Shown here piece after piece: positions 14,638-46,238 of a stretch of DNA of 64,000 nt. This DNA comes from Promethearchaeota archaeon (GTDB lineage Archaea; Asgardarchaeota; Lokiarchaeia; Sigyniarchaeales; SOKP01), in the NCBI GenBank assembly GCA_004524535.1, contig SDNY01000001.1:1-64000 (forward strand), written 5' to 3'. The notes under the pieces were generated by a model. It was not told the DNA's origin. It worked only from the letters and a program-made list of their open reading frames with translations, and ran no database searches. Both the position numbers and the translations under genes were made by a program. The number at the start of each line of letters is the position of its first letter. The first letter of the stretch is position 1.

Positions 14638-14677
14638 TTAAAAAGTTTCAAAAATTTAATTTTTTTTTTTTTAATTT

Positions 14678-15310: not shown

Positions 15311-15390
15311 TTATCTTATATAAGCAATAATTTTATTTATTTCGATATATTATAAAATGTAGCAATTTTCATTCAATTTCTATAATTATC

Positions 15391-15633: not shown

Positions 15634-15661
15634 TTATATAATTTAAAAGTTATTGTTAGTT

Positions 15662-16494: not shown

Positions 16495-16674
16495 TATAAT
16501 ACATATACAAAAAGATATTTATATAATTATCGATTGTATACAAATAGTATAAATTACATATCTTCGTAAAACAGAGGAAAAAGAAATATTTCCCTTAAAA
16601 AATCTTTTTTTTTAAAATAAAATTTAATAATAAAAGGAAACGCGGAAGATCAAGATTTAGATCTTTTTGATATG

Positions 16675-17478: not shown

Positions 17479-17758
17479 ACTCTATTTTAATAATTTTTAA
17501 AAAATAATTAAAATTTTCATTTAGAATTAGTAATATAATATAATAAAATGATTAATTTTAATAAGAATTTAAAATCCTTGTTTATAAGATATTATAATGG
17601 TTCGATTTTGAAAAATACCTGATATAGAATATTATTGTAATCTCTATTTGATAAACATTTAAAAATTATAAAGTTTAAAATTCTAATGATTAAAAAAATA
17701 AAAAATCTTGATTAGAATAATTTAATAACTTGTATATAGAATTATAACTTCTTTACGA

Positions 17759-18505: not shown

Positions 18506-18514
18506 AATTAAGTA

Positions 18515-18778
18515 CTATTTCTCCATTTTAATTGCTTGCATTTTTTTCGAAATTTCCATCATTTCACTGTATAGTCTTTCAATTTCTTCTTCTTCTTCCG
18601 AAGCAACTAATTTTTCATTAATCTCCTTTATTTTGTAAGTTAGCTTAATAAATTCGTCAGGTGGTTCAAGTTGATAAATATATTTTCGTTTACCTTTCTC
18701 TTTAGTAACATAGACCCATTTACCAGCTTTATCTGAAAAATTCCATCTATTAAGGGTATATTTTCTCATTGTTTCCAA
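18515..18778 (-). CDS. Small hypothetical protein
   Basis: 87-aa ORF co-oriented with and 11 nt downstream of 18790-20061. Confidence 0.6.
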   Translation of the reverse strand: METMRKYTLNRWNFSDKAGKWVYVTKEKGKRKYIYQLEPPDEFIKLTYKIKEINEKLVASEEEEEIERLYSEMMEISKKMQAIKMEK

Positions 18779-18789
18779 TCAATAATCTA

Positions 18790-24398: not shown

Positions 24399-24653
24399 GT
24401 GAATAAAATGGGAAATGCCACAGGTATTGTAGGATTAATTCTCGGAATAATAGCATTGGTTTTATCCTTTCTTATTCTTACATCTCTCATAGGTGTAATT
24501 CTAGGGATTGTAGCTCTTATTCTATCAGTAGTCGGAATAGCAACAAATGATTCGAAAGCACCAGGAATAATAGGATTAATTTTTTCATTAATCGCTATAG
24601 TCTTAGGAATCTTTTGGTTATTGGTTATAGTTGCTGTTCTTGCATCAACATAA
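24399..24653 (+). CDS. Small membrane protein (DUF4190-like)
   Basis: Three hydrophobic helices with GLILGI repeats. Confidence 0.65.
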   Translation: MNKMGNATGIVGLILGIIALVLSFLILTSLIGVILGIVALILSVVGIATNDSKAPGIIGLIFSLIAIVLGIFWLLVIVAVLAST

Positions 24654-24890: not shown

Positions 24891-26693
24891 ATGAAATTAG
24901 TAAACCCGTATAAGCCATCTGTATATCAACTGGAACCTCGGAAAAGGCTAATTTGGATAATCTCTCTTATCGGATGTGGTATTTATGCAATTATCGTATT
25001 TATAATTTTATTTATACTTCAGATACCAAATGAATTAATGATTATTACGATCTATACTTATATGGTTATTGGACCATTAACTATATATTTGTTATGGCTT
25101 GTTTTTTATAGATGGAAAATAAAAAAATGGCCTCGAAACAAGAAAGTATTTGGTGAACCAATTCATTATACATTACTTTTAATATCGATTGGTATCTGTG
25201 TTATTAACTGGGCTGCTTATTGGAATACGGGTCTTGATAGCATTTGGTTAATTTTTGCATCATGGATTTATATTCTTAGTGATAACTTATTACTTGGGAC
25301 TATAATCTATACTGTTGGTGCTTCAGCTATTACACCTGCTTTTACTGAAGAATTCTTGAAGTCTTTCCCTAGCATTATTGCTTTTTTTGTAGTTTTACAA
25401 AGGGATAGAAATCTGGAGGAGAAGAGAAAGGGATTGTTAGGAAATGAGTTAGGAGGATTTTTATTTGGATTAGTAATTGGAATAACATTTGAGATTTTAG
25501 AGCTAATATATTATCTATTAATTACAATATCCTCAGGAGGAGGTGCTTTTGATATATATTTTCAAGTTACCGTTAGAGATTTTTCTCCACTTCATATACT
25601 TGGAGGTGCAATTGGTGGATTTGCGGCGGGCAGGGCTGAAAGACTTCGTTATGAGCGAGGAGAAGAGGATTTACCTATGAAAATTCAAATAATCAATTTT
25701 ATTAAACGTTTTTTACCATTATGGCTTATCCCCGTTTCGATCCACTTTCTCTGGAATAGTTCAAGTGTTTGGATTTATTTAATAATTCTAGCGATAGATG
25801 GTGATATATTGTTAAATTTAATTCTTGAGATGATCGTAATCGTTACATTAAGTGCATTATGCTTTTTTATATTACTTTTACTATTAAGATGTGCTAATAG
25901 AATTACTGAGAAAACTTATCGATGCTCTGAAACAGGGATTATCGTTGCAAAGGAAGGGGATATTTGTTCCTTATTTAGTGACAAAAAAACCGATGTTGAA
26001 CCAACAAAAAAACCTTTAGATAAAGCTTTTATTGCTCAAGACACAGAAATTGTTTGTCCAAATTGTGATAAGGTAAATATAAGAGGAGCAAATTTCTGCA
26101 TAAATTGCGGTTTCCAAATAGCTAGTTATTATTATTGTCCAAATTGCAGTAAGGCTAATAAATTTGGAATAAAATTTTGTATACACTGTGGATTTCAAAT
26201 ACAACAATTAAAAACACCCCAAATTTTTCCTATGTCAAATGAAAGACCCTCTAAAGCATTACTCGTCATTTCGTTAATTGTAACTATAGGTTTTCTATTT
26301 TATATTGTATTATTTGCAATTTTAGCTTTGCTGATATATGGCATTTTTGGATTTTTCTATTTAGCTTTTCAAATAAGCATAGAGATAGTAGCTGCAGTAG
26401 TAATGTTTTATGCTATTATAACTCTCTTTAAAATGAGGAAGAATTATAATGGAAGAAAAAATATCTGGTCATGGTATCTTTTAATTTTTAATTTAATTGG
26501 AATATTTGGACTGCTTGTAATTTATGGTATTTTAGGTGTGATTTATGGAATTATTGCATTCACGCTCGGCTATATTACGTTAATAACGGGGCTTGGATTC
26601 CTTTTTCTAGCTGGAGCCACATTAGTTTTTATATTTCTTTTAAGAACAATATTAAAATCTGATGAAATGCTTCAATATCAAACTAAAAATTAA
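24891..26693 (+). CDS. PrsW-family intramembrane metalloprotease with a double zinc ribbon
   Basis: EEFLK, FEILE and HFLWN motifs; two CPNC...FCIxCG ribbons. Confidence 0.8.
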   Translation: MKLVNPYKPSVYQLEPRKRLIWIISLIGCGIYAIIVFIILFILQIPNELMIITIYTYMVIGPLTIYLLWLVFYRWKIKKWPRNKKVFGEPIHYTLLLISIGICVINWAAYWNTGLDSIWLIFASWIYILSDNLLLGTIIYTVGASAITPAFTEEFLKSFPSIIAFFVVLQRDRNLEEKRKGLLGNELGGFLFGLVIGITFEILELIYYLLITISSGGGAFDIYFQVTVRDFSPLHILGGAIGGFAAGRAERLRYERGEEDLPMKIQIINFIKRFLPLWLIPVSIHFLWNSSSVWIYLIILAIDGDILLNLILEMIVIVTLSALCFFILLLLLRCANRITEKTYRCSETGIIVAKEGDICSLFSDKKTDVEPTKKPLDKAFIAQDTEIVCPNCDKVNIRGANFCINCGFQIASYYYCPNCSKANKFGIKFCIHCGFQIQQLKTPQIFPMSNERPSKALLVISLIVTIGFLFYIVLFAILALLIYGIFGFFYLAFQISIEIVAAVVMFYAIITLFKMRKNYNGRKNIWSWYLLIFNLIGIFGLLVIYGILGVIYGIIAFTLGYITLITGLGFLFLAGATLVFIFLLRTILKSDEMLQYQTKN

Positions 26694-26761: not shown

Positions 26762-28171
26762 CTATTCATTCAAGAGTCCATATCTTTTAAGTCCTTCTCT
26801 CATATCGGCTTGAAATGGTCCTGGAGTGCCCTCTATAAATGCTTCAACAATATCCTGGTTTTTAACCTCTTTTGAAACTCTTTTTTTTGCTTTCTCTTCC
26901 GCAAGTGAGGAAATTGCCATTCTCGCCATAGATTGAAATTGTGGGGGCGATAATTTTATTAATTCATCAAAAATCCTCGCAGTCTCGGGATTCCAGTTTA
27001 ATCCCTTTTTTTTCTTTTCCTTTGGTTTGGCAGTGTCAATACCAAATTCCCGACTGGTTATTAGATCATCAATATAATCATTCAATGATTCAACATACCT
27101 AGGAGCTTCTTCTTTATCAAGAATAACTGCTTTTTTCCCCCATTGTTCACAATAATTACATTCATCACACATTGAAATACAGTCTTGCTTTTTGAAGAAT
27201 TCAATAAATCCATCGAGTTTAGTATTATCTATTATTAATTTCGATTTAGGCTCTTTTACAAACGTTTCAGTCATTTTAACATTAGGATCTTTTTCAACTC
27301 CAACAGTCATAGAAAAACCTTGAATAATATCTACAAGGTTTCCTTCATATTTACGAGATGAAAATGCCTTGACAGCTCGAAGTATCCATTCAGTACTCAT
27401 ACGGCGTCCAGCAATTTTGAAATTTTCAATTCCAATAGCCTCATAATGAGATAAATCCTCGGGGCGCACCCATCGTGCTTTAACTACTTCAGTAGGATTT
27501 GAAAATTTAATGACACTGCAATTAAGGATACAATAATCAATATATACCCCTCCGAGTTGGTGGGAAGATTGAGAAGAATGCCCTACAATATTATAATGAT
27601 AATATCTAAAAGGACATTGATATAAACAACCATCAGTTAAAAGGAGATTAATATTACATTTAACTGCTTTTTTAATTTTCTTCAATGTCTTAAAATCGCG
27701 ATTAATCATTACATCGGGGGTAATCTCATCAGCACCCATTGCTTCATAGAATTTTGCCCGATTAACACTGTTAACGTGAGCAATTGTAGAGACACGAATT
27801 TTCAACTTGGGAAATTGTTCTTTTATTAAGCGGATTAAAAAAGGAATAGTCACAATTACATTATCCGACCCAATATCGCTTATCCATTGAAGGTAATTTA
27901 GCAACTCTTTATGATACGCCGCATCATATTCCATATTACCCATACATGGCGCATTAAGCAAATAAGAGAATTTCATTTTTTTTTCATGAACATTCTTAAT
28001 ATATTCCGCAATTTGTTCTTCCTTAATATCCTTTAAAAGAAATGAAGGCCGTCCATGGCCAACAATAGAGGATTTTGAAGCTCCATAGATCTCTCTTACT
28101 GGATATTTAGCTAATTCATCGATGAGTTTAAAATCCCAATTTGTCGCAACGGTAAATTGAATTCTTTTCAC
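26762..28171 (-). CDS. U32-family Fe-S protein (UbiU/UbiV/TrhP superfamily) with C-terminal DUF2621/PCP_red-like domain
   Basis: YLLNAPC, VSTIAHV, GCLYQCP...YCILNC, FKIAGR; C-terminal W...P..F...AE...TP..F domain. Confidence 0.8.
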   Translation of the reverse strand: MKRIQFTVATNWDFKLIDELAKYPVREIYGASKSSIVGHGRPSFLLKDIKEEQIAEYIKNVHEKKMKFSYLLNAPCMGNMEYDAAYHKELLNYLQWISDIGSDNVIVTIPFLIRLIKEQFPKLKIRVSTIAHVNSVNRAKFYEAMGADEITPDVMINRDFKTLKKIKKAVKCNINLLLTDGCLYQCPFRYYHYNIVGHSSQSSHQLGGVYIDYCILNCSVIKFSNPTEVVKARWVRPEDLSHYEAIGIENFKIAGRRMSTEWILRAVKAFSSRKYEGNLVDIIQGFSMTVGVEKDPNVKMTETFVKEPKSKLIIDNTKLDGFIEFFKKQDCISMCDECNYCEQWGKKAVILDKEEAPRYVESLNDYIDDLITSREFGIDTAKPKEKKKKGLNWNPETARIFDELIKLSPPQFQSMARMAISSLAEEKAKKRVSKEVKNQDIVEAFIEGTPGPFQADMREGLKRYGLLNE

Positions 28172-28279
28172 CTTAAAATAAAATTACTATTCCTATATAA
28201 TAATTTATAGCATAAATTAAAAATGATGAAAAAAAATATTTTCAATAGATTATCATGTATTAATTTCTTGATTTCCTCA

Positions 28280-28666
28280 TTATTTACTCACTTTTCCGTG
28301 AGCTTTAGCATTTAATGGCAATAAAGGAGCACAAGCCATGAGCTTAGACATATCTCCTTCGACTACATAAGTTCCAGTCATAGTTTCTTGAATAGGATCT
28401 GATTCACCCGAAAGAGTTTTTTTCAATGTGCTGAAGTCAGTTTTATGGGATATTTTTGGAGCATCTGGACCTGAATATTCACCCATCCCCCATTTTATCT
28501 GGTCTTTTTCAACAAATTGCCAATAATTCATCTCTTCTCTATCTGTTATAATGAATTGGAATGTCAATGGCGCAAGTGCTCCCAATAAGGGAGCTAATTC
28601 TGGCAGCTCATTAAATGCTTTCATATATTCTGTAAGATATGCTTCCCATTCTTCTTTTGTATCCAT
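28280..28666 (-). CDS. SCP2 sterol/lipid-binding domain protein
   Basis: TFQFII...LSGESDPIQETMTGTYVVEGDMSKLM SCP2 signature. Confidence 0.8.
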   Translation of the reverse strand: MDTKEEWEAYLTEYMKAFNELPELAPLLGALAPLTFQFIITDREEMNYWQFVEKDQIKWGMGEYSGPDAPKISHKTDFSTLKKTLSGESDPIQETMTGTYVVEGDMSKLMACAPLLPLNAKAHGKVSK

Positions 28667-28943
28667 CTAAATTTTCACCTCCTTTCTTTTTCATTTGTTA
28701 AATATTTTTAATTTTCATAATTTATAACAACCTTACCGTTGGGACATAAATTGGAATCCAATTTAGTAGGTCAATTCTTGGAGATATACAAAATTTCTTG
28801 GGGCAAAAAAACCTACAACATTTATTCCAACATCCGAGAATAATATATCCTTATTCATCACTATTCGTATCCAGCATATAATTTATTAATTAGAATTGAA
28901 AATTATTTTTATAGAAGTAAAATAATTTTTACATTCTTTAACA

Positions 28944-30113
28944 TCATTTAACTTCTAAACCAGCTTTAGCACCATCTGATAATAAATTTATCATACTTTC
29001 AGTGTAATCATTTTCAATCTTGTAGAAAAGGCCATCACGACCAAACGTAATACTACAAATAAATTTATGGATCTTTGTAATAGTTGGAATATTTTCGACA
29101 TATTTTTTGATCAATGGATGAAAATTCACTGGAGCTTGCTCTTCTTCAGGAAAACCGATTCCAAAACAGATTCGCTCTACCCTATCACTATCCCAGTTAA
29201 AAGTGTAATAGATAGTCAAAGCCTCACAACATTTTTTCATTACTTCCGGCGGGCCAATTTCGAAATTTAGCTCTTTGAGTAAAGTTTCATAAACTTCTTG
29301 TCTAGCTTTTGACGGATCTTTAATCATGAAGTAGATATTTGTAGAATTATTACGAAAATCAAGACCAAAGACACTAAAAACATTAAGTCCATGTTTTTCA
29401 AAATAATCTCTATGTTTATTAATACTATTTGGGATTGTAGACATTGAATATGTTGGTTCAAATGGACTAGGGACGATGAACGGCCAGATTTTAGACAAAC
29501 CAGTCCTTACATCCAAATCAACACCCCACCCCAATATATCAAAGGTTGATAAAATCTCTGGAATCATCTTATGAATTGGATGCCCATTTTTTTCAATTAA
29601 TCCTTCATTAATTGCAGTTGTGTAAGGATCTGGATTGTGAGGTATCATATGCTCTAAATATCGTACTGAAATGTCTCTTTTTTCTTTTGGTTTTGTGGTT
29701 GTTCGGATTGTAACCGTCGAACCAGTATAAAAATCCTTGTAAGCATTTAATACATTCCATATCGCTTTTTCATCACATATAACTTCTGCAAGTTCCCCTA
29801 TTTTTAATATGTGATCAACCAATTGTTTTAGATCTGTATTAAATTTATATGTACACTTTATCTTTGCAAGATATTTGTCAAGATCAACATTTAACCTTTT
29901 CAAATCCTCTTTCATCATGTCTTGAAAAGCTGGTGGGGTAACTTCAAACATAGAGATAACAAGATCTACCTCAGCTACAGCTTTTCCATTTCGCTCCATA
30001 CATTTCTTCTCTGCAGCTTCACGAACTACGGGGCCAACTATAGGTCTAACTGTTTCTGGAGTTCCCGCTACAATTTCTTCATAAAGCTTTTTAACTTCTG
30101 GTTGCCATTCCAT
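28944..30113 (-). CDS. Soluble ABBA-type aromatic prenyltransferase (NphB/CloQ/PpzP family) with N-terminal DUF2621-like domain
   Basis: IRTTT...ISVRY, GVDLDVRTGLSKIW, FGLDFRNNSTNIYF, IYYTFNWDSDRVERICF, YKIENDY match the PT-barrel strands in order. Confidence 0.82.
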   Translation of the reverse strand: MEWQPEVKKLYEEIVAGTPETVRPIVGPVVREAAEKKCMERNGKAVAEVDLVISMFEVTPPAFQDMMKEDLKRLNVDLDKYLAKIKCTYKFNTDLKQLVDHILKIGELAEVICDEKAIWNVLNAYKDFYTGSTVTIRTTTKPKEKRDISVRYLEHMIPHNPDPYTTAINEGLIEKNGHPIHKMIPEILSTFDILGWGVDLDVRTGLSKIWPFIVPSPFEPTYSMSTIPNSINKHRDYFEKHGLNVFSVFGLDFRNNSTNIYFMIKDPSKARQEVYETLLKELNFEIGPPEVMKKCCEALTIYYTFNWDSDRVERICFGIGFPEEEQAPVNFHPLIKKYVENIPTITKIHKFICSITFGRDGLFYKIENDYTESMINLLSDGAKAGLEVK

Positions 30114-30182
30114 TTTTAATATTTACCTTCTTTTTCTGAAATTTTTTTTATTTAATTCTTTCATTTTTTTTAAGATTTTTAA

Positions 30183-31604
30183 TTAATTTTGATATTTAGC
30201 AAATTGAATTTGGCCCATTTCATTAAATCCTTCTGGATTATTTAAGCCAATTCCGGGTGCGAACCATCCTGAATTTTTTTCACAATATTCTCTTATTATT
30301 TGAAATAAATCGAATTCTTTGATTTTTGGAGAGATATAAAATTTAGGTTTTAACAGGTTCTCTCCATTTTTTAACACTCCATCTTGTACTGCGATGCGCT
30401 GGAGAGGGGTATGTGGGTAAATTCTCATTCCTGAAAAAATAACCACATCATTATCACCTTCCCACACCTCTCCCCTAAAATTTTCGATTGTTTCTAATTG
30501 ATTAAATGAAGCACGAACGGTTTCAACAGTTTCATCTGGTCCTCCAACAATTATATGAATTAATTGTTCAATTTCTAAATCAAAACATCTTTTTGAAGTA
30601 AGGATAGCATCATCTGGAGTCCTCTTTTGCTTTATATTTCTCAAAATCTCCTCTGATAAAGATTCAAAACCTGTATCAAGATGAGTAACCCCACTTTCCT
30701 TCATGAGGGGCATTAAATCAACAAATTCTTTATTGGGATCGTAATTTGCCCCCCATTTTAAATCGATTTTGCGTTTTATTATTTCTTGGCATATCTCTTT
30801 TAGATTTTGGTAATTTAAATTGAGAACACCATCAACAAAAAAAACATTATTAATTCCTAAATTATTTACAATAAATTCAAGTTCATCAGCTATTCTTTTG
30901 GGAGATCGATACCGAACGGTCGAACCTTCAATATATCTATAACTACAATAGATACATTTATGAGGACAACCACGCTTTGTTTGAACATTTCCCCAAATAG
31001 CACCTGTTTTATTCATACAATAGATATATTCATTATTATCTACCAACTCTCTAGCAGGATTTGGCAGATCATCAAGATTTTTAACGCGCCATGGTGGTTT
31101 TTGATGATAATTTCCTTTTCCATCTATAAAACATACACCTTTTTCTATTTTTCTAGGATCTTCATCCTTTTTAATATGTTTTAAAATTTCAATAAAAACA
31201 TATTCACCATCTCCAACGACACCAATATCGTGGTTTAAATCCCTAAGAATCTCTTCTGAAAAAATTGAGAAACCAGCACCACCTAAAACTATTGGAATAT
31301 CTGGTTCAGCAATCTCTTTTATATACTGAATAATACGCTTAGCTGGTAAGTAAAAAAATAGATTTGCTGGATAAGTTGTTGAATCAATATTACGAATAGA
31401 GATACCTATTAATTGAGGATTAAAATCATCTATTGCTTTTGTGATATCATTCTTTGAATCGTTACTAAGAGTTAAATCCCTTAGCATTACTTCATGTCCT
31501 TTAGAAAGAAGATAGGACGCAATATATGCTTCTCCTATAGGTGGGACCATTACATGTACTAGTTCCCGACTCCCAGAAAATATTAATACTCGCATAATCC
31601 TCAC
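30183..31604 (-). CDS. B12-binding-domain radical SAM enzyme (resembles the lipid-biosynthesis type)
   Basis: PPIG, ISIRNID, VLGGAGFS, GDGE, QTKRGCPHKCIYC. Confidence 0.88.
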   Translation of the reverse strand: MRIMRVLIFSGSRELVHVMVPPIGEAYIASYLLSKGHEVMLRDLTLSNDSKNDITKAIDDFNPQLIGISIRNIDSTTYPANLFFYLPAKRIIQYIKEIAEPDIPIVLGGAGFSIFSEEILRDLNHDIGVVGDGEYVFIEILKHIKKDEDPRKIEKGVCFIDGKGNYHQKPPWRVKNLDDLPNPARELVDNNEYIYCMNKTGAIWGNVQTKRGCPHKCIYCSYRYIEGSTVRYRSPKRIADELEFIVNNLGINNVFFVDGVLNLNYQNLKEICQEIIKRKIDLKWGANYDPNKEFVDLMPLMKESGVTHLDTGFESLSEEILRNIKQKRTPDDAILTSKRCFDLEIEQLIHIIVGGPDETVETVRASFNQLETIENFRGEVWEGDNDVVIFSGMRIYPHTPLQRIAVQDGVLKNGENLLKPKFYISPKIKEFDLFQIIREYCEKNSGWFAPGIGLNNPEGFNEMGQIQFAKYQN

Positions 31605-31641
31605 CTCTCTCTTATTCGCAATTTATTGAATCCTTTATTAA

Positions 31642-33036
31642 TTATTCAATTATTAATTCTTCACGAGAATTATCTCTCTTATGGTCATGATCATTTTCAT
31701 GCCAACAATATGAAAATGGTCCGAATATATCACCCGTTTCACATTCAGCATGCACGCGACAACCTCCACCACAATACTGAAGATGATGACAAGATGCACA
31801 TTTTCCATTACGTTTTTTTCTGTCTCTGATGTCTTTAAATAGTTGGGAGTTAAGTACATCTTCAAAGCTGTCCTCTAAAGCATTACCGAGAGTGGTTTTT
31901 GTTGGATAGCCACATGGATAAATAGTACCGTCCACCCCAACACCCATCATTGTTCTGCATGCCAAGCATCCTATCCCCCATTCAATTGTAGCCAATTCCT
32001 TATCATCTCTTATTTCCTCCACAAAGGGGGTCATCTCATATATTTCATAAATGGGTAATGTACCTGCTTCGCCTTCTCTTATTTTTTCAATAGCATGCTT
32101 GAATTTGAAATCATATAATTTTTTATATTCCTCTTGACTGAGTCCGATTTGATCCCAAAATTCAGATGCTCGATTTTGTTTTACTACAGCTCTAAAAAAT
32201 GTTTCTGCCCCCCATTCTTCTGATAATGCCTTAAGTTTATCTAGCTCATTAATGTTTTGCTTCATTATTGTAATTGAAGTACATACAAATAATCCATATT
32301 TCAAGCAATTTTTTATTGCTTTTTCTGCATATTCTAATGAATTAGTAAATCCACGGATTTCATCATTTTTTTTGGGATCTGCGCTTTCAAAACTAACAAA
32401 CACATGACTCATATCATTATGCTTAGCCATTTTGGCAAATTTCTCATCAAATTTTACACCGTTGGTTATAATAGCATGAATATAACCCTTTTCTTTACAA
32501 AATTTCATAATTTCGGAAATATCTTCGCGTAAAGTAGGTTCACCTCCAAACCATATATAACATCCATGTCTTCCTTGTTTTTGTAATCCTGTTTCCAAGT
32601 TTTCTATTATTTGGAACCATTCTTTTGTTGAAAGCTCAGGGCGAGGTATATAATCATCTACAGCACAATGTAAACATTTCATATTACATCTATCAGTAAG
32701 ATACATTGCAAAATGTACATTACCTGGACGAAAAGCTCTTATAATATTTTCCCAACTAACTTTGATTCGATCCATGATATCCTTCAGTACAATATACCGT
32801 TCAACATCAACTCCCAGTGATGTCAAATCCTCAACCGTCGTTGGTTTAAATGCTTCAGGAGTTACATCAAATATCCCAGTGACCAAATCAGCTTCATTGA
32901 TATTGGAACCGTTCCGTTCATTGCATTTATTCTCGGCAGCTTTTATTATCATCGGCTTTACAGAAGGACGAATTCCTTCGGGAATTTTTTCTATAATTTT
33001 ATTAAATAATTCTTCTGTTTTTTTTTCCCAATCCAA
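31642..33036 (-). CDS. Radical SAM/SPASM protein with N-terminal DUF2621-like domain
   Basis: CNMKCLHC, FGGEPTLR; SPASM GC...IYPC...CASC...CGGGCR. Confidence 0.9.
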   Translation of the reverse strand: MDWEKKTEELFNKIIEKIPEGIRPSVKPMIIKAAENKCNERNGSNINEADLVTGIFDVTPEAFKPTTVEDLTSLGVDVERYIVLKDIMDRIKVSWENIIRAFRPGNVHFAMYLTDRCNMKCLHCAVDDYIPRPELSTKEWFQIIENLETGLQKQGRHGCYIWFGGEPTLREDISEIMKFCKEKGYIHAIITNGVKFDEKFAKMAKHNDMSHVFVSFESADPKKNDEIRGFTNSLEYAEKAIKNCLKYGLFVCTSITIMKQNINELDKLKALSEEWGAETFFRAVVKQNRASEFWDQIGLSQEEYKKLYDFKFKHAIEKIREGEAGTLPIYEIYEMTPFVEEIRDDKELATIEWGIGCLACRTMMGVGVDGTIYPCGYPTKTTLGNALEDSFEDVLNSQLFKDIRDRKKRNGKCASCHHLQYCGGGCRVHAECETGDIFGPFSYCWHENDHDHKRDNSREELIIE

Positions 33037-33042
33037 AAATTA

Positions 33043-34416
33043 TCACCTTGATTTGCAATTTTCATGTTCATGGTCATCTTCATGCCAACAGAAAGGAAGA
33101 GATTCTAGAAAATCACCGGTTTCGTTCTCTGCGTGGCATCTGCAACCACCCCCACATAATTCGAGGTGATGACAAGATGCGCACCGCCCTTTTATATTTC
33201 TATCTCTAATATCTTTGAAAAGCTTTGATTCCATTATTTCATTGAAATCTTGCTTTAGCACATTGCCCAAGGTTAATTGGGATGGATAATCGCATGGGAA
33301 GAAATCTCCATTAATATCAATACCTGAGACTGAACGACATGCTTGACATCCTACCCCCCATTCTAAAGCTGTTCGCTCTTCATCGTTGACAGGGCATTCC
33401 ATGAAAGGTACCATGTCATACATAAGAAACTTATGGATACCACGCACTTCCCCTTTTCTGATTGCATCAGTAATTTTACTATATTTAAAGGTATAAAATT
33501 GCCGGTATTCATCCAAATTTAACCCTATTTCATCCCAGTTTATATCAGCAGATCTTTGTTTAATAATTGCTCTGAAATATACTATTACACCCATAGATTC
33601 TAATCTGTCTTTTATTTTTTCCAACTCATCAAAATTTTCTTTTTGCGCAGTTGCGGTACAAATAGTAAGATTACCATATTTTAGAGATAATTTAATTGCT
33701 TTTTCAGCTGCTTCATATGCGTTTGGAACGCCTCTAATCTTCGCAGCTCTTTCAGGATCCACGCTATCGTAGCTAATAAAGACATGACTGATTTTAACCT
33801 CAGCACATAATTTTGCAAGTTCCTCATCAAATAACATACCATTTGTAGAAACAGCTTGATAATATCCCTTTTCACCACAATACCTTATCAAATCATTGAG
33901 ATCCTTGCGAAGAGTAGGCTCTCCACCAAACCATATATAACAACCTCGACGACCACGTTTTCGTAATGTTTCCTCGACATTTTCGATAATGTCAATCCAT
34001 TGTTCTGTTGATAATTCTGGACGATTCTCTATCACTGAAGCACCACAATGGCGGCATTTTTGGTTGCATCGATCAGTTAGATACATTGTGAAATGATAAA
34101 CTCCTGGGATAAATGCAGCGCTTACATCGTCCCATGAACGTGCATGTGCCTTCATAATTTCTGATAATTGTATATACCGATCTGTATCTATTCCTAAATC
34201 TTTCAAATCATTAACTACAGTTGGTTTAAACGGTTCCGGTGTAATCTCAAACAGTGCGGATAATAAATCATCTTTTCCTACAAATCTAGAATTCCTAAGC
34301 CTTGCTGTTTTTTCAGCGGTTTCATGCAACATAGGTTTAACTGCTGAACGAAACGCCTCAGGAACCTGATCTGTGATTTTCCCGAACAAATTCTCAACTT
34401 CTTGTTCCCATTCCAT
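33043..34416 (-). CDS. Radical SAM/SPASM protein with N-terminal DUF2621-like domain (paralog of the downstream gene)
   Basis: CNQKCRHC, FGGEPTLR; SPASM GC...FFPC...CASC...CGGGCR. Confidence 0.9.
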   Translation of the reverse strand: MEWEQEVENLFGKITDQVPEAFRSAVKPMLHETAEKTARLRNSRFVGKDDLLSALFEITPEPFKPTVVNDLKDLGIDTDRYIQLSEIMKAHARSWDDVSAAFIPGVYHFTMYLTDRCNQKCRHCGASVIENRPELSTEQWIDIIENVEETLRKRGRRGCYIWFGGEPTLRKDLNDLIRYCGEKGYYQAVSTNGMLFDEELAKLCAEVKISHVFISYDSVDPERAAKIRGVPNAYEAAEKAIKLSLKYGNLTICTATAQKENFDELEKIKDRLESMGVIVYFRAIIKQRSADINWDEIGLNLDEYRQFYTFKYSKITDAIRKGEVRGIHKFLMYDMVPFMECPVNDEERTALEWGVGCQACRSVSGIDINGDFFPCDYPSQLTLGNVLKQDFNEIMESKLFKDIRDRNIKGRCASCHHLELCGGGCRCHAENETGDFLESLPFCWHEDDHEHENCKSR

Positions 34417-34527
34417 TTTTGCTCAACCTAATCTGAATTTTTCACTCTTATTGTTTTTTTAAAAAAATGCTTTTTTTTTTATTTAAAATTGAAATAATTT
34501 TATAATTGCAATTTATGATATTTTTAA

Positions 34528-35241
34528 TCATTTTTTTCCCTCCCAAATGACATATTCATTAAAATCAGAAATATAATTAATTTTGAGATGAGGATAGGAA
34601 TTATTAGAAAGATAAATCCCTGGTTTTTCAAAAAGAGAATACTTCGCTAAATATAAAATTCTTTTGAAATAACAATTTAGTTTGAACTCAATTTTCCTAT
34701 AAGAAATCCTTTTTTGAAAAGTGTTATTTAAATATCTCTTGTTCCTCAAATTTATAAAGAAACTATTGATTCTCTCATTCTTTTTATAATTTCTATCAAT
34801 TTTTCTTATGAGTTCATCATCTATATACTGTTTTATTTGACTACTGAGATAAAAATAATAATGTGTTTCTTTAGACATAAAAGAGACTGTATCTAAATAA
34901 CGAAATGCTTGAGTATCACCATAAAATAATACTTTTTTAACATAATGATAACAGCAAGAATCAATAAAACAATAGATACTGATTATAATATAAATATCAC
35001 TTAATTGACCAATACTCAACGGAATAATTTGTTGCCCTTTAGGTAAAAACCATAAAATCTTTATATAAGGTAGATTCGGAATAAAAAGTGAATTACCACA
35101 TTTAAAGTAATCCTTTAATGAAGAAGACAAAGAGTTTATATTACTTAAAAACGTGTAGATCAATGTAACAAGGAAAAATGAAGAAAGAAACAGTAGAATC
35201 AAGAGTATTTTTAGTTTTTTAAATATTTTAATATTATACAT
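34528..35241 (-). CDS. Hypothetical protein with N-terminal hydrophobic segment
   Basis: 237-codon open frame in very AT-rich DNA; atypical composition, no family recognised. Confidence 0.4.
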   Translation of the reverse strand: MYNIKIFKKLKILLILLFLSSFFLVTLIYTFLSNINSLSSSLKDYFKCGNSLFIPNLPYIKILWFLPKGQQIIPLSIGQLSDIYIIISIYCFIDSCCYHYVKKVLFYGDTQAFRYLDTVSFMSKETHYYFYLSSQIKQYIDDELIRKIDRNYKKNERINSFFINLRNKRYLNNTFQKRISYRKIEFKLNCYFKRILYLAKYSLFEKPGIYLSNNSYPHLKINYISDFNEYVIWEGKK

Positions 35242-35334
35242 CTATTAATTACCTAATTCAATAATTAATTTGAATATTTTCTTAGTTCAAATAAATAATA
35301 TTTTTGTTTCATTAAATTTAATAGTATCGAGATC

Positions 35335-36825
35335 CTATTCATCCATTGTTTTAGTAAATTTCAATGATGATGTAAGAAACAAGGGCGCTGCATGTATTAA
35401 AAATAGTGTGTTTAAATTTTGAATATTAGTTCCAGTAATAAATCTCTTTTTGTAATTAATAACGTTATAAAAATAAGACTTTTTAGCTTTTTTAAATGCT
35501 TCAACGACTTCTAAAAACGAATTATATTTTAATTTTATTCCAAAACTCTCTGGAGATTCATGAGCAGGAGAACCAGGAAAAATATAGTAAGCCTCATTCA
35601 TTATTGTAATTGGCTTGAAATTTGATTTGCCATATTTTAATATACATTTCGATGCAAAAATAAAATCTTTCATAACATCAATAAAGGATTGAAAAGGATA
35701 ACCCATTGTCAACCAAATTCTTAATTTCGTTAGGTTTAAATTCGCATTTTTTATAGTATCTTTAATTTGATTTAAAGGGAAGTTAAATGTTGGATCGCAA
35801 ATTTTTGCTATTTTTTGATGCACACGATGAGAAGTTGTTCGAGGAGAAATACTAATTGATGAATCTCTCCGAGTAAATGTTTTAGAAAACATTTTCCACA
35901 TTTCTTTCGGAAAGGGAAGCCGCCAAATCTCCAAATCTCCACCTATATCAAGATTCTCTTTTTGCAACAGCTTAAGTATTTGCTCCCAATATTTTAAATT
36001 AGAAGGATAAGCACCATGGCCAAAAAAAATACTTGGAACTTTAAATTTGTTAAGAACATTGTTTATATCTTCTATAACCTTTTCTGGACTCCTAAGAACA
36101 ACATTGTTTCGCCCAGCTAACAGTTGTTGAGCTCTTTGACCTCCTCCACAAAGAGGACAATTAAATCGACATCCTCTTCCAATAGGGATAACGCCAGAGA
36201 TTCCCATCATCTTTCTGCTATTTTCAAAATAATATTTAGCATTTTTTAGGAGTGAAAAATTTGTAAAATTCAAATCATCTAAAGTCTTAGCTACATAGGA
36301 AATAGGATTTTCTTTAATATGTTTTGAAGAATCTTGATATGATAAATTGGGAACAGAATCTAATAATTTATTATGATTTACCTTTTGAATATATTGTAAA
36401 AATGGAGTTTCACCATCTCCACTAATGATCGCATCGATTTCTTTAAAGTACTTTAAAATATCATTACGATAATATGAGGCACTTAGACCTCCAAGAATAA
36501 TTTTAACATTTGAATTTACTGATTTTACAATTTTGGCAATCTCAATAACTGCATGCGAGTTATGTATCCAATGTAAATCAATTCCACATATATCAAAATT
36601 AATAGATTTGAGATAGTCTTTTAATGACCAATTAATATCTAAGAATTGCTCTAATGGATAATTTATAATTTTAACTCCAAAGCCCTCTCTTTCAAGTAGA
36701 TCGGCAATGGCAAAAACACCCATTGGAATGAAAAGGTACGATCCTCGAATAAATCTGGCCTTTTTACCATAATTATGTTTTAACGTACGAGGAGGATGAA
36801 TAAAAATTATGTCGTAGCTTTTCAA
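35335..36825 (-). CDS. B12-binding-domain radical SAM enzyme
   Basis: IPMG, GIDLHW, ILGGLSAS, GDGE, GRGCRFNCPLC. Confidence 0.88.
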   Translation of the reverse strand: MKSYDIIFIHPPRTLKHNYGKKARFIRGSYLFIPMGVFAIADLLEREGFGVKIINYPLEQFLDINWSLKDYLKSINFDICGIDLHWIHNSHAVIEIAKIVKSVNSNVKIILGGLSASYYRNDILKYFKEIDAIISGDGETPFLQYIQKVNHNKLLDSVPNLSYQDSSKHIKENPISYVAKTLDDLNFTNFSLLKNAKYYFENSRKMMGISGVIPIGRGCRFNCPLCGGGQRAQQLLAGRNNVVLRSPEKVIEDINNVLNKFKVPSIFFGHGAYPSNLKYWEQILKLLQKENLDIGGDLEIWRLPFPKEMWKMFSKTFTRRDSSISISPRTTSHRVHQKIAKICDPTFNFPLNQIKDTIKNANLNLTKLRIWLTMGYPFQSFIDVMKDFIFASKCILKYGKSNFKPITIMNEAYYIFPGSPAHESPESFGIKLKYNSFLEVVEAFKKAKKSYFYNVINYKKRFITGTNIQNLNTLFLIHAAPLFLTSSLKFTKTMDE

Positions 36826-37002
36826 GATGCCTACCGAAATTTTGAGAGGAATTAAATGTTAATTAAAATATGGTTTAGATATATAAATATTAAACTTTTT
36901 TAATTTTTTTACGAAAAAAAGAATCTCCAAATAGTTAAAAAACAAAATTTAAATATTTTTTAAACAATAGATTAAATTATTAACTGAGAACCAATAATAA
37001 AA

Positions 37003-37971
37003 ATGATTGATATAGCATCTATGCTCGAAAATATGAGTTTAGGAGATTTTTTGTTTATAATTGTATTTCCATTAGTTTTACTTTTACTACTTCTAATTAT
37101 TTTTATCAGTGGATTATTAAAAAAAAAAATAAAGCGAGACTTTATGAGTTTAGACGAATTCATAATGGATTGGCTTAGAGATCACGGACAAGCTCATAAG
37201 TTGGATGATCAATTTGCGAAAATGAGAAAGGACCCTGCTGGAAGAATTTATATGCCAATAACTTATCATGGAGCAAAATTTGCCATAAAATGCGGTTTAA
37301 CACCAAATAAAGTTTCTTATATAAATTTAATTTTATCATTTCTTATATTTTATGGGGTAATAATGGCTAGTCGGGGCCATACACTTGATTTATTTACTCA
37401 ACAGCCATATTATGGTGTTTGGTTTATTCCTCTTGCTTTTTTGGCTTTATTTACAGGAATTATTGATGGGATTGATGGAGCAATAGCTAGATTAACAGAA
37501 ACAAAGTCTAGAGCTGGTGCTTGGTTAGATAATGTGATTGATAGAATTAGTGATATATTATTATTAGTATGTCTAGTTCCAACCAGCTTTCTCGTCTTTC
37601 CTGAATATGGACTTGACTTTACATGGATAATTTGGACGAATATTTTTCTAATTTTTCTTTATGAATACATGAGATCCAGACATGAAGGTTTAGGTTTGCA
37701 TGAGGCGAAACCATTTGTGGGTGAAAGAATAACTCGTTTTTTTATTATCTTTACATTTTTTCTAATTTATGGCATTTCGAGTTTCTTTATATTAATTACT
37801 AATTGGATCGATCCCTCTGCTACTAAAATCTGGGCACATTCTCATGGTGGAACAATAAAATGGAATATGCTAATTTTTCAAATCAATTTATTATTGATTA
37901 TGGTCTTTTCATCAATTAAATTAGCACAATATAGTTTGAAAAACCTAAAAAAATTGGATGGAATCAAATAA
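37003..37971 (+). CDS. CDP-alcohol phosphatidyltransferase family protein
   Basis: TPN...DGIDGAIAR...GAWLDNVIDRISD signature. Confidence 0.9.
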   Translation: MIDIASMLENMSLGDFLFIIVFPLVLLLLLLIIFISGLLKKKIKRDFMSLDEFIMDWLRDHGQAHKLDDQFAKMRKDPAGRIYMPITYHGAKFAIKCGLTPNKVSYINLILSFLIFYGVIMASRGHTLDLFTQQPYYGVWFIPLAFLALFTGIIDGIDGAIARLTETKSRAGAWLDNVIDRISDILLLVCLVPTSFLVFPEYGLDFTWIIWTNIFLIFLYEYMRSRHEGLGLHEAKPFVGERITRFFIIFTFFLIYGISSFFILITNWIDPSATKIWAHSHGGTIKWNMLIFQINLLLIMVFSSIKLAQYSLKNLKKLDGIK

Positions 37972-38009
37972 TTTATAAGAGGTTTTAAATCATAAATTTC
38001 AGAAGTTTT

Positions 38010-39341
38010 TTGTATACCGTTATTTTAGTAATTTATTTTATTCTTTTACATATCTATTTTCCACCTTTTTTATCAGCAGGAACGAAAAACGCAATTGATA
38101 CCTTCATTAGTAATCCTTTAACCTATTGGTGGTTTATATTTCCATTAATTGGACTAATCACATTATTGATCTTGATCATTTATTATGGAAGATGTTTCTT
38201 ATCTTCATTTGGGCGTGGTTATCGAACTAAAAAACCCTATAATGCTAAAATAAGTATACTAATTGCATCTAAAAATGAAAAAACATTATTAGATAGAACA
38301 TTAAATTCCATTCTCGCATCAGATTATCCAAAAGAAGACATTCAAATAATTATTATTACAAGTGGTTCAACAGATGGTACCACTGATTATTCTAACAATT
38401 TTGCCAAAGAAAATAGTTCAATTGATATAGAAGTATTATCTGAGAATCTACCTAAAAAAGGAAAACCTCCAGCATTGAATTATGGACTTAAATACGTAAA
38501 AAATGATATCGTTGTTCTTTATGATTCTGGTTGCATTTTAGAACAGAATACATTAAGAAATTTAATATCACCATTTCAAAAAGAAAAAAATAATGCAGTT
38601 ATAGGGCCTGTCCTTGTTAAAAATTGGAAGATCAATAAATTAACCAGAGCGCTTTTCCTTGACTATGCTTTTTTATCTGGTGGAGGATTATTATTTGAAA
38701 CGAAAAACAGATTAGGTAAATCTGCTTATTCATTCGGACGAAATTTTGCCGTAAGAACTAAACACTTAAGAAAATCTGGAGGATTTAACGAAGATTCAAT
38801 GACAGAAGATCTCTATCTTTCTGTAGTTCTAAATTTAGATGGGATTAAAATTCTATTTTCTCCTAAAGCAAAAGTCTATGAATATGTACCAAGTACTTGG
38901 GAGATCCTAAAAAAACAACGTACAAGATGGGTTGCTGGATATATTTATGATATGCCACAATTAATGGAAATGAAAAGCGAAGAAAAAGATGGCAAAAAAA
39001 TTATAATCGATAGAAATATGACGATGATGCTTTTAGGAAATATAGATGCTTGGATTCCAATATTCATTGGATTCGCAATATTTTTCTTTCTTATCGGCGA
39101 GTGGTATCTATTAAGTTGGTTTCTTTCCTGTTTAATCTTTCAATTTGGCTTTTTATTTAAAGCCGTACGAAAATATGGCGATAATCATTTTAGTATTTTG
39201 TTTTGGTGGCCAATAAGCGCTTATATTCACCTCTATATGTTTCTACGTCAATTCAGTTTGCCAAAAGAAATCAGCTGGGATAAAACTCCAATGATTTTAG
39301 AAAAGCAAGAAGAAGAAGTTAAAGCTCTATCGACTAAATAG
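38010..39341 (+). CDS. Membrane GT2 glycosyltransferase (processive-type motifs)
   Basis: STDGT, GKPPALN, TEDL, QRTRW and flanking TM segments. Confidence 0.88.
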   Translation: MYTVILVIYFILLHIYFPPFLSAGTKNAIDTFISNPLTYWWFIFPLIGLITLLILIIYYGRCFLSSFGRGYRTKKPYNAKISILIASKNEKTLLDRTLNSILASDYPKEDIQIIIITSGSTDGTTDYSNNFAKENSSIDIEVLSENLPKKGKPPALNYGLKYVKNDIVVLYDSGCILEQNTLRNLISPFQKEKNNAVIGPVLVKNWKINKLTRALFLDYAFLSGGGLLFETKNRLGKSAYSFGRNFAVRTKHLRKSGGFNEDSMTEDLYLSVVLNLDGIKILFSPKAKVYEYVPSTWEILKKQRTRWVAGYIYDMPQLMEMKSEEKDGKKIIIDRNMTMMLLGNIDAWIPIFIGFAIFFFLIGEWYLLSWFLSCLIFQFGFLFKAVRKYGDNHFSILFWWPISAYIHLYMFLRQFSLPKEISWDKTPMILEKQEEEVKALSTK

Positions 39342-39343
39342 CC

Positions 39344-40213
39344 TTAATACATTACTTTATTATATTTCTTCTTTTTTTTGAACGACCTGTCGAAGATTGA
39401 TTTTCTATTATCTTTTTTCCATTTTAAACGATTACGCCAGCGTTCAATAGCTTCCAAAGGAAATCCAAGATTCTTTTTGCGCAGAAAAAAATTAAAAAAA
39501 CCAAGTAAAAGAAAAGCAATAATCACACTAAGAGCTAGTAGTACAATATCAATTACAAAAATTTTTATATAGCTTAAGTAAAAATAAAGAAAATAAATAG
39601 AAATTAATGTATTTGATAATAATAGAATATGCATTAAGTCTGTCATTTTATTGGTTTTAAATTTTTTTCTTTTGCTTATCCCATGAATCCCAAATTGGAA
39701 ATTTATAAAAATTGTAAAAAAGGCGAATATATATAGAATTAACGAAATTTGAGAAATCAAACACGAAATTTGATAATAATACGAAAAAGGAAAAAGTGGA
39801 GTTAGATATATAAAATAACGCTCTTTATAGATGGAAAAATGATAGAGAAAAATGTTTATCATTGCAAAATCGATCGCAATAGCACAAACCGGAGCGGTTT
39901 TTGCTGGATTTGAATCAAGCACATGAAGTAAAAAAATAAAGACATACATAGAAAACATAGCTAAGAAAAGATTCAAGAATAAAAGAGTTGAGAATGACAT
40001 TGAAAAAACAATTTCTTCTATTGATGGAATATCTGTTCTAGTAGGTAACCTAGGATCGGAAAACTTTGGGTGAAGATAAACCTCAAGAAACCAGGAAAAT
40101 TCAAGAAAAATCATAAAAATTGTTAATGTCAGAAATAATTGAACCTGAAATATAAAAGCAGTCCAATTTTTTACTTTATTTTTTTTTTTAGAGCTAATAT
40201 TTTCCTTTTTCAT
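39344..40213 (-). CDS. Hypothetical polytopic membrane protein
   Basis: About six hydrophobic segments. Confidence 0.6.
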   Translation of the reverse strand: MKKENISSKKKNKVKNWTAFIFQVQLFLTLTIFMIFLEFSWFLEVYLHPKFSDPRLPTRTDIPSIEEIVFSMSFSTLLFLNLFLAMFSMYVFIFLLHVLDSNPAKTAPVCAIAIDFAMINIFLYHFSIYKERYFIYLTPLFPFSYYYQISCLISQISLILYIFAFFTIFINFQFGIHGISKRKKFKTNKMTDLMHILLLSNTLISIYFLYFYLSYIKIFVIDIVLLALSVIIAFLLLGFFNFFLRKKNLGFPLEAIERWRNRLKWKKDNRKSIFDRSFKKKKKYNKVMY

Positions 40214-40352
40214 TTGTCTTATTCAGCTTGATATTAAAAGAAAAAATTAAACTTTCATGATTTCTATATTAATATTAAGTAATTCTATATTTTTAAAAAT
40301 TAATCAATATTGAATTTTTTTAAATCTCAAAATAGTAACCATTAAACTTCTC

Positions 40353-41687: not shown

Positions 41688-41757
41688 GGGAGCTCTATTT
41701 TGATAAGATTAATAATAACAAAATAACTATTAAGGTTAATTAAGGAGTATATTAATA

Positions 41758-43203: not shown

Positions 43204-43229
43204 GGAGTAATTTATTGAGTGAGATATAA

Positions 43230-44735: not shown

Positions 44736-44793
44736 AAGTATTGCATTTCATTATTAGAGATTATAATAGAAAACTTAATAATAATAAAAAAAA

Positions 44794-46233: not shown

Positions 46234-46238
46234 TTTTG

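Follow-up and report, generated by a model that had tools for sequence, protein, structure and literature searches.

Four enzymes encoded in one operon of a Lokiarchaeial (Promethearchaeota) archaeon carry copies of the same domain of about 80 residues, abbreviated DOM below, which may act as an adaptor that brings the enzymes of one pathway together. The DNA under study, termed the window, comprises the first 64,000 nucleotides of contig SDNY01000001.1 and belongs to a 3.66-Mb, 99%-complete genome. Its region 26762-36825 holds eight genes, every one on the minus strand. Read from the upstream end at 36825, they encode a B12-binding radical SAM enzyme (B12/radical SAM), a protein of 237 amino acids (orf237), two radical SAM/SPASM enzymes in the order SPASM2 and SPASM1, another B12/radical SAM enzyme, an ABBA-type aromatic prenyltransferase (PT), an SCP2 protein and a protein of the U32 family. 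DOM constitutes the N-terminal ~80 residues of the PT, SPASM1 and SPASM2; in the U32 protein it forms the C-terminal ~79. The original prediction had placed four segments of about 80 amino acids on these proteins, and the alignment, the pairwise comparisons and a genome-wide profile search bear it out.

The four copies align end to end with no internal gaps, and W, P, A-E, R, D, T-P, F and L are invariant across them, in agreement with the motif that had been predicted. In pairwise blastp, with E-values scaled to a database of 2e7 residues, five of the six copy pairs gave matches at 1e-22 to 2e-6, i.e., SPASM1/SPASM2 at 1e-22 (44% identity), PT/SPASM1 at 3e-20, PT/SPASM2 at 5e-16, U32/PT at 2e-8 (30% identity) and U32/SPASM2 at 2e-6. 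The U32/SPASM1 pair gave no blastp match by itself and is connected solely via the other copies. A profile built from the four copies recovered these four places and no other in the genome at E<=0.01, 16 candidates having been scored, and neither the B12/radical SAM enzyme between the tagged genes nor the one at the upstream end contained DOM even at E<=100 with the HMMER filters off. These E-values, together with the restriction of the profile to four places, indicate that the observation is real; judged by sequence comparison, the four segments are genuine homologous copies of one module, far beyond chance. Since the solved ABBA prenyltransferases align to the window PT only from residue ~92-120 on, DOM is an appendage of an enzyme that is complete without it.

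Fusion partners, distribution and conservation

Regarding the architectures in which DOM occurs, the four-copy profile was run against 1.84 billion cluster representatives and retrieved 220 proteins at E<=1e-3; the following counts concern the best 150 of these 220. Short proteins (<=120 amino acids) without a partner make up 75 of them, and there are 25 U32 fusions (two also with SCP2), 17 PT fusions, 10 SPASM fusions (one being LuxC-DOM-SPASM), two SCP2-DOM proteins, a single B12/radical SAM-DOM protein, 11 other architectures and nine repeat-protein false positives. The class of other architectures includes 2xDOM-[2Fe-2S] ferredoxin, DOM-PNPOx-like, DOM-methyltransferase and HpaB-DOM proteins. 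One metagenome locus is a B12/radical SAM-DOM fusion, and a homologue search of public proteins (the 8000 candidates sharing most words) returned PT and U32 fusions only, with no new partner types. The position of DOM in the fusions varies. It is N-terminal to the PT in most loci and C-terminal in L054, L066, P0011 and P0012; in 14 distinct sequences it is flanked by U32 and SCP2, in L055 by SCP2 and PT (SCP2-DOM-PT), and it is repeated in L044 (U32-DOM-DOM) and P0029 (U32-DOM-3xSCP2-DOM). In P0044 (949 amino acids), DOM joins LuxC, an acyl-CoA reductase, to a radical SAM/SPASM enzyme, which ties the DOM-tagged SPASM enzymes to chemistry of the LuxC/LuxE fatty-acid-reductase type; LuxE-like genes flank the Asgard clusters too.

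The nine long TPR-/HEAT-like repeat proteins (P0023, P0067, P0070, P0088, P0104, P0126, P0127, P0132 and P0142) were treated as false positives and excluded from the partner list. They match in 4-9 stretches each via a repeated 'PDAFRP'-like helix-turn motif, with whole-protein E-values down to 4.5e-18, and are a trap when mining with the DOM profile. Stand-alone relatives were followed in a metagenome scan at 20 loci, seven of which were long enough for neighbours to be read and two of which (L076 and L078) have the same layout of open reading frames (ORFs). No recurring partner was seen among the neighbours at these seven loci, which include phosphofructokinase, PilZ, methyltransferase, TMEM175, VIT1 and M16 peptidases. 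At L076, an environmental bacterial contig, stand-alone DOM genes at 5989-6252 and 7031-7309 (+) flank a TMEM175-like channel gene.

DOM is restricted to a particular type of gene cluster among the relatives of the window genome. Sixteen of 40 related genomes carry DOM, always within such clusters. In an even sample of the phylum it is present in 25 of 301 genomes, nearly all of them from the window's own family (22 of 68). Its presence is patchy even inside genera, so the cluster is an accessory trait. The same gene set was found in Asgard contigs from metagenome-assembled genomes of a public genome collection, and the conserved operon reads orf237, DOM-SPASM2, DOM-SPASM1, B12/radical SAM and DOM-PT, then either a U32 pair (383 amino acids, and a U32-DOM-SCP2 protein of ~680 amino acids) or a free SCP2, and finally U32-DOM. 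In most relatives the 383-residue U32 protein, which has no DOM, is followed by the ~680-residue U32-DOM-SCP2 fusion (L024 10015-13222, L029 7166-10359, L030 5001-8103 and others); at this position the window genome and the related genome G001 have only the free SCP2. The U32 pair thus seems to have been lost or split off in this genus, with the carrier left behind. G001 also has free-standing DOM fragments of 75 residues and shorter near the cluster (L023 17605-17832 (+) and G001:C4:330921-331040). Outside the archaea, a single contig of one metagenome-assembled Bacillota genome (Pseudobacteroides sp., G040) encodes six DOM proteins. This bacterial cluster (L067) also encodes a UbiE/COQ5-like methyltransferase, two HemN-like radical SAM enzymes, a HEAT-repeat protein, a B12/radical SAM enzyme, a NUDIX hydrolase, a DAHP synthase and a small radical SAM protein, and its ABBA PT is without DOM.

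SCP2 recurs in these clusters both as a neighbour and within fusions. The free SCP2 of the window shares 72-77% identity with the C-terminal SCP2 domain of the 680-residue U32-DOM-SCP2 fusion, to which it is orthologous. All 13 multi-domain genomes among the 40 relatives possess a cluster-type SCP2 (E<=1e-60). Natural fusions comprise SCP2-DOM (P0035 and P0103) and U32-DOM-SCP2 (P0125 and P0129), and four divergent radical SAM proteins with their own C-terminal SCP2 have no DOM. As far as gene content tells, SCP2 is a frequent companion and fusion partner of DOM, not an obligatory one.

A maximum-likelihood tree of 68 domains over 87 columns, many forks of which are unresolved, groups the domains by partner. 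The N-terminal PT domains (17 rows, 100/100), the U32-SCP2 type (9 rows, 100/99) and the U32 type (12 rows, 100/96) each form a clade, and two deep halves separate the U32-type from the SPASM/PT-type domains (98/93 each), which are only 23-30% identical to each other. The SPASM1 domains branch as the sister group of the N-terminal PT clade (93/89). Domains from the C-terminus of the PT group separately (98/97) and fall outside that clade, indicating that the PT gained DOM at least twice, at opposite ends. The free 75-residue copy of G001 falls inside the SPASM1-type group and appears to be what is left of a SPASM1 duplicate. As a measure of selection, the identity of orthologues to the window copy was compared between DOM and the catalytic core. 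The values for DOM and core are 73 and 73% in the U32 protein (n=27), 61 and 53.5% in the PT (n=23; DOM higher in 21 of 23), 58 and 69% in SPASM1 (n=19) and 68 and 72% in SPASM2 (n=22). By this measure DOM is about as conserved as the catalytic cores and is evidently under purifying selection. The linker between U32 and DOM varies in sequence and is always charged or polar in 19 orthologues, which fits a tether.

These results bear on further claims of the original prediction. That DOM is a pathway-specific tag is supported by the occurrence of the genomic copies in the operon only, the conserved operon, the independent fusions and the core-like conservation. A link with SCP2 had also been proposed; natural fusions and co-occurrence favour it, but SCP2 is not obligatory. 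The domain was further expected to be a handle for mining related clusters, and it served as one for fused forms but not for stand-alone relatives, which have heterogeneous neighbourhoods.

Family relationships of the domain

DOM had been predicted to resemble DUF2621 and PCP_red, and this resemblance stands at the superfamily level, although the window copies stay below the Pfam thresholds. DUF2621 (PF11084) matches all four copies at profile positions ~54-138 with 16.5-23.1 bits, below the gathering cut-off of 27.7, and a six-frame search of the genome with DUF2621 gave the window copies 17.5-22 bits. PCP_red (PF08369; 45 positions, gathering cut-off 32.5 bits) gave no match to the four copies and none in the genome at E<=1. 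In a wider set of 63 members (the four window copies and 59 stand-alone representatives), 59 match DUF2621 and 41 match PCP_red at E<=1, the best E-values being 3.4e-12 and 1.2e-7, respectively; beyond these two, no family recurs in more than two of the 63 members among the first 25 of 49 families listed. Bacterial U32-DOM homologues score 27.8 and 27.9 bits with DUF2621, past the cut-off. A profile search of the PDB placed the isolated PCP_red domain structures 2kru_A and 2l09_A among the top hits at the non-significant E-values of 0.16 and 0.34, and neither was among the seven chains listed with the cluster-only profile. Profile comparison thus makes DOM kin of the PCP_red/DUF2621 superfamily, not a formal member by Pfam thresholds. 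Judged from its sequence, the domain appears to be all-helical.

A histone fold (CBFD_NFYB_HMF) was considered because of the helix-loop-helix 'A..R.....V...D.V.A' of DOM, which resembles histone alpha2-L2-alpha3. Histone-fold chains recurred in PDB searches with three DOM profiles, as 7 of 15, 4 of 14 and 1 of 7 hits, none of them significant. When an Asgard histone alignment was built and compared by hhalign with two DOM alignments, the probabilities were 35% and 5% over only 26-27 columns, corresponding to the end of alpha2, L2 and alpha3, and an SCP2 control gave 0.5%; the fold was rejected as unproven. The conserved positions of DOM are mostly core-type hydrophobics. The domain is acidic, with a mean net charge of -1.2 to -5.2 by class, so that membrane anchoring by electrostatic binding to anionic membranes is unlikely.

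The bare architecture is already known in the sense that it is visible in databases, where precomputed Pfam annotation of some public U32 proteins shows PF01136+PF11084; public records name the proteins merely 'aromatic prenyltransferase' and 'U32 family peptidase'. The novelty lies in the pattern, in which several enzyme classes of a UbiTUV-like Asgard cluster share one domain as a tag, with independent fusions and an interchange with SCP2. The literature search returned no functional study under DUF2621, PCP_red, PF08369, PF11084 or IPR013580, methods papers only for 2KRU/2L09/Asr4154, and no publication on such an Asgard/Lokiarchaeota cluster (aromatic prenyltransferase, U32, radical SAM, SCP2, quinone biosynthesis).

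Possible roles of the domain

The anaerobic ubiquinone pathway provides the background for the reading that we prefer. In the accessible text of PMC6747719, UbiU-UbiV of Pseudomonadota is a U32-family 4Fe-4S heterodimer for O2-independent hydroxylation of ubiquinone precursors, UbiT is its SCP2 accessory factor, and a natural UbiT-UbiU fusion exists. The same text describes the SCP2 domain of UbiJ as binding hydrophobic intermediates and organising a multi-enzyme complex, the Ubi metabolon of E. coli. DOM may be a portable, non-catalytic adaptor that gathers enzymes around a shared hydrophobic intermediate or carrier. We give this reading a probability of about 0.45; the binding itself is what we infer. 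Short linkers of variable sequence attach DOM to three enzyme classes, i.e., the UbiU/UbiV-type U32 protein, the ABBA PT and the two radical SAM/SPASM enzymes, and DOM would direct these soluble enzymes to one hydrophobic intermediate, carried by the SCP2 of the operon or kept in a complex formed by DOM. The result would be an arrangement like the Ubi metabolon for the anaerobic tailoring of a prenylated aromatic, quinone-like compound. An adaptor fits the data best in view of the placement at either terminus, the flexible tethers, the restriction to one pathway, the core-like selection and the carrier fusions. As for the contact itself, candidate modes differ in what they would account for. 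Docking onto SCP2 would account for the fusions, the co-occurrence and the absence of DOM from SCP2-bearing radical SAM enzymes. Association of DOM with DOM would account for the tandem copies, the SCP2-DOM proteins and the clusters without SCP2, and direct substrate binding for genomes whose only DOM protein is a U32-DOM and for the variety of small-molecule enzymes that bear DOM elsewhere.

Several observations weigh against the adaptor. Genomes with one DOM protein cannot use docking between different DOM proteins, and in the cluster loci the B12/radical SAM enzyme encoded mid-operon is always without DOM. In G025, G026 and G028, which have a single U32-DOM, the SCP2-like matches are only weak (E 5e-5 to 8e-4), and the Bacillota genome G040, whose completeness is not known, has no SCP2 profile match at E<=0.01. 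Few polar positions are conserved across all DOM classes, and the two deep clades, U32-type and SPASM/PT-type, are so far apart that their partners may differ. The unrelated neighbourhoods of the stand-alone relatives suggest that the superfamily offers no common function. A broader proposal, which we consider doubtful, is that DOM would be a docking code for small-molecule pathways, a lipid counterpart of the recognition elements of ribosomally synthesized and post-translationally modified peptides (RiPPs) or of polyketide synthase docking domains. The copies on the hydroxylase, the PT and the radical SAM enzymes would bind SCP2 or each other, assembling a soluble machine like the Ubi metabolon that would make a prenylated quinone-like redox lipid without oxygen in Asgard archaea of the Lokiarchaeial lineage.

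Alternatively, DOM itself might bind or cap the shared hydrophobic intermediate, acting as a small-molecule equivalent of RiPP recognition elements or as a lid, and so lend every enzyme an affinity for one scaffold. A lid function is often assumed for the BchB C-terminus in dark-operative protochlorophyllide reductase (DPOR). Small aromatic or hydrophobic molecules are the substrates of almost every partner that DOM has elsewhere (the HpaB C-terminal domain, PNPOx-like, class I methyltransferase, LuxC-DOM-SPASM, B12/radical SAM), DOM and SCP2 appear to be alternative appendages on radical SAM enzymes, and substrate binding would explain the clusters without SCP2 and the genomes with a single U32-DOM. 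According to the accessible text of PMC12022308, a BchB helix of DPOR (residues 398-420) contacts protochlorophyllide in trans. The portion of the DPOR literature that was covered, however, holds nothing stating that PCP_red touches the pigment or what the PCP_red part of BchB does. Helix 398-420 presumably lies upstream of PCP_red. A helical bundle of ~80 residues is small for a lipid pocket, particularly one whose conserved positions are mostly of the core type, and function at either end of the PT through flexible linkers fits docking better than a fixed lid, so that we hold this reading to be rather unlikely. The redox character of the partners points elsewhere: most DOM carriers are Fe-S or flavin proteins (U32, radical SAM/SPASM, B12/radical SAM, BchB, HpaB, PNPOx-like), and two representatives consist of 2xDOM and a thioredoxin-like [2Fe-2S] ferredoxin (P0090 by Pfam, P0144 by similar sequence), as would be expected if DOM recruited a common electron donor (ferredoxin, flavodoxin or similar) to Fe-S enzymes. 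Such recruitment is nevertheless improbable. The PT needs no electrons, yet its DOM is the best conserved relative to the core and was gained twice; DOM also occurs on SCP2 alone and on a methyltransferase, and the operon B12/radical SAM enzyme, which needs reduction, is without DOM.

A peptide product would suit the operon at first sight, since its enzyme set resembles RiPP tailoring sets. Recognition elements hold the N-terminal position in many radical SAM/SPASM maturases, which is the position occupied by DOM, PqqE is the nearest solved chain of SPASM2, and the NCBIfam matches include MftC and PqqE models. DOM would then be a new leader-peptide recognition element, and the radical SAM/SPASM enzymes, the B12/radical SAM methylase, the PT and the U32 'peptidase' would mature a peptide. 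This RiPP-type reading, one of the options named in the original prediction, is weak and in our view very improbable, because no PqqD-like family recurs among the 63 members (first 25 of 49 families listed) and no plausible conserved small ORF is present in the operon, where the 277-nt gap between SCP2 and PT shrinks to ~100 nt in G001. The SCP2 fusions, the neighbouring CDP-alcohol phosphatidyltransferase, GT2 and LuxE-like genes and the bacterial DAHP synthase point to a lipid or aromatic small molecule, not a RiPP. DOM might also have no shared function and be a structural or solubility extension spread by duplication among neighbouring genes, its role differing from enzyme to enzyme or being absent. 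The derivation of the PT domain from a SPASM1-type domain, as sister clades, the remnant of a SPASM1 duplicate in G001 and the strong divergence of the DOM classes are consistent with such spread. Against it stand a conservation as high as that of the catalytic cores, or higher, over family-level distances, the repeated and independent gain by the PT and the persistence of the architectures across Asgard lineages and in a bacterium, which make it an unlikely explanation.

The function of DOM is accessible to experiment. Three unrelated catalytic folds encoded in a single operon bear this one small module, which was repeatedly gained and is conserved about as well as the catalytic parts, so that its function can be tested directly; four natural bait proteins and one candidate prey, SCP2, are at hand. 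If DOM were indeed a docking code, this would be the first function for the domain superfamily, including the C-terminal domain of BchB/ChlB. With its combination of a U32 Fe-S hydroxylase-like protein, SCP2, a soluble aromatic PT and radical SAM enzymes, the cluster further suggests the anaerobic synthesis of a prenylated aromatic compound, possibly a quinone-like one, in some Lokiarchaeia. Such a compound would be relevant to energy metabolism and membranes in the archaea related to eukaryotes.

The locus, its putative pathway and comparison with known systems

The Pfam families of the operon enzymes were assigned at scores well over the cut-offs, except for orf237, which has no family match in Pfam or NCBIfam and accompanies the cluster in relatives, minimal U32-DOM clusters included. 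The second B12/radical SAM enzyme, at the upstream end, is of a type that often adjoins the cluster in relatives.

Table. Features of the DOM operon in the window and the DOM cluster of the Bacillota genome
Feature	Position	Strand	Evidence or remark
U32 protein gene, whole	26762-28171	-	Pfam
DOM copy 1, C-terminus of U32 protein, after ~12-residue Lys/Glu/Pro-rich linker	26765..27001	-	ORFs, alignment, blastp, genome profile
U32 core (Peptidase_U32 family; Fe-S hydroxylase-like)	27002..28171	-	PF01136 51.7 bits
Free-standing SCP2 lipid-binding protein, 128 amino acids	28280..28666	-	PF02036 27.5 bits, cut-off 21.3
ABBA aromatic prenyltransferase gene, whole	28944-30113	-	Pfam
ABBA aromatic prenyltransferase core	28944..29873	-	PF11468 173.8 bits
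DOM copy 2, N-terminus of prenyltransferase	29874..30113	-	ORFs, alignment, blastp, genome profile
B12-binding radical SAM enzyme inside operon, without DOM	30183..31604	-	Pfam, NCBIfam
Radical SAM/SPASM enzyme 1 gene, whole	31642-33036	-	Pfam
Radical SAM/SPASM enzyme 1 core	31642..32796	-	Pfam, NCBIfam
DOM copy 3, N-terminus of SPASM enzyme 1	32797..33036	-	ORFs, alignment, blastp, genome profile
Radical SAM/SPASM enzyme 2 gene, whole	33043-34416	-	Pfam
Radical SAM/SPASM enzyme 2 core	33043..34176	-	Pfam, NCBIfam, PDB profile
DOM copy 4, N-terminus of SPASM enzyme 2	34177..34416	-	ORFs, alignment, blastp, genome profile
orf237, membrane-type conserved protein of no known family	34528..35241	-	homologues adjoin cluster in most Asgard loci
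Second B12/radical SAM enzyme, without DOM	35335..36825	-	nearest model TIGR04190, below cut-off
Bacillota cluster L067 (G040:C57)	695-19447	-	six DOM genes: three U32-DOM + three DOM-SPASM

The PT covers positions 2-283 of the 287 of PF11468 (PTase_Orf2), and its closest solved chains are AmbP3, AmbP1, EpzP-type 4ee6, NphB 1zb6 and CloQ (E 1e-41 to 1e-10), with all alignments starting after DOM. SPASM1 scores 84.3 bits for Radical_SAM and 45.3 bits for SPASM, and SPASM2 79.8 and 37.0 bits, all over the cut-offs. The SPASM enzymes reach no NCBIfam equivalog (AhbD 133-137 bits against a cut-off of 500), the nearest models to SPASM1, all far below cut-off, being AhbD, NirJ and MftC. Another radical SAM/SPASM gene of 345 amino acids lies at 51679-52716 (+), for which Pfam gives only Radical_SAM and SPASM, with no fifth DOM by the genome profile search. 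In the U32 protein, Cys 76, 172, 182, 186, 214, 218, 331, 335, 338 and 341 are 100% conserved in 19 orthologues, and their spacing, counted from the sequence, is CX3CX27CX3C plus CX3CX2CX2C. Sequencing runs listed for the operon were from DNA, one of them possibly its source, and none from RNA.

The stretch 35335-50623 forms an island of lipid-type tailoring genes. Besides the operon enzyme at 30183-31604, four further B12/radical SAM paralogues are encoded at 35335-36825, 41758-43203, 43230-44735 and 44794-46233, together with two LuxE-like acyl-protein synthetases (40353-41687 and 49433-50623), two GT2 glycosyltransferases, a CDP-alcohol phosphatidyltransferase, a hexapeptide transferase and an alpha/beta hydrolase; several of these genes recur next to the cluster in relatives. 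Immediately past the U32 gene in the downstream direction and on the other strand, an ORF of 84 amino acids at 24399-24653 (+) encodes a very hydrophobic protein and 24891-26693 (+) a 600-residue multi-pass membrane protein with double zinc ribbons, and no link between either and the cluster was seen. A HEAT-repeat protein is encoded at 18790-20061 (-), ~7 kb from the operon, and another inside the bacterial cluster L067 at 11930-12802 (-); such a protein is a possible scaffold. The gene content suggests that the pathway performs an anaerobic tailoring of a prenylated aromatic, lipid-like compound, possibly a quinone-like one. The UbiE/COQ5-like methyltransferase, the HemN-like radical SAM enzymes and the DAHP synthase of the bacterial cluster fit an aromatic product. 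A tetrapyrrole-type substrate would be a remote alternative, from the AhbD-, NirJ-, BchE- and HemN-like flavour of the radical SAM enzymes.

Among known systems, the PqqD-type RiPP recognition elements resemble DOM in being one small domain on several enzyme classes, at either terminus or free, that marks the enzymes of a shared substrate. They differ in that no sequence relation exists, DOM is apparently all-helical, no precursor peptide was found in the operon and the context is one of lipid or aromatic compounds. PCP_red, the C-terminal domain of BchB/ChlB in DPOR, shares the motif W...P-F/V-R...A-E... with the first half of DOM, and it too is a helical module appended to another protein, in its case an Fe-S enzyme with a hydrophobic substrate. 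The 45-position Pfam model of PCP_red, however, spans only about half of DOM, and the carriers here are U32, ABBA PT and radical SAM proteins instead of nitrogenase-like proteins. DUF2621 is the best model over the full ~80 residues; as this family is without known function, membership would explain nothing.

The closest functional parallel is offered by UbiT, UbiU and UbiV. In both systems U32 and SCP2 proteins are encoded together (SCP2 adjoins U32-DOM in the window), natural SCP2-U32 fusions exist, Cys clusters are conserved and the setting is anaerobic; moreover, the U32 pair of the window's relatives (383 and 680 amino acids) is reminiscent of UbiV/UbiU plus UbiT. In contrast, the window has a single U32 gene, its U32 protein matches no NCBIfam equivalog (best TrhP, 32.9 bits against a cut-off of 534), the PT is of the soluble ABBA type and not of the UbiA type, and the host is an Asgard archaeon. 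The Cys spacing also differs from the published motif type, which the accessible text of PMC6747719 gives as CX6CX15CX3/4C, with four conserved Cys in each of UbiU and UbiV for 4Fe-4S, and that text describes no PCP_red-like domain for Ubi proteins. The UbiJ/UbiK metabolon of E. coli is similar to the present cluster in combining an SCP2 protein with several soluble tailoring enzymes. A common tag on those enzymes is not described in the same portion of PMC6747719, and here DOM could supply the assembly code.

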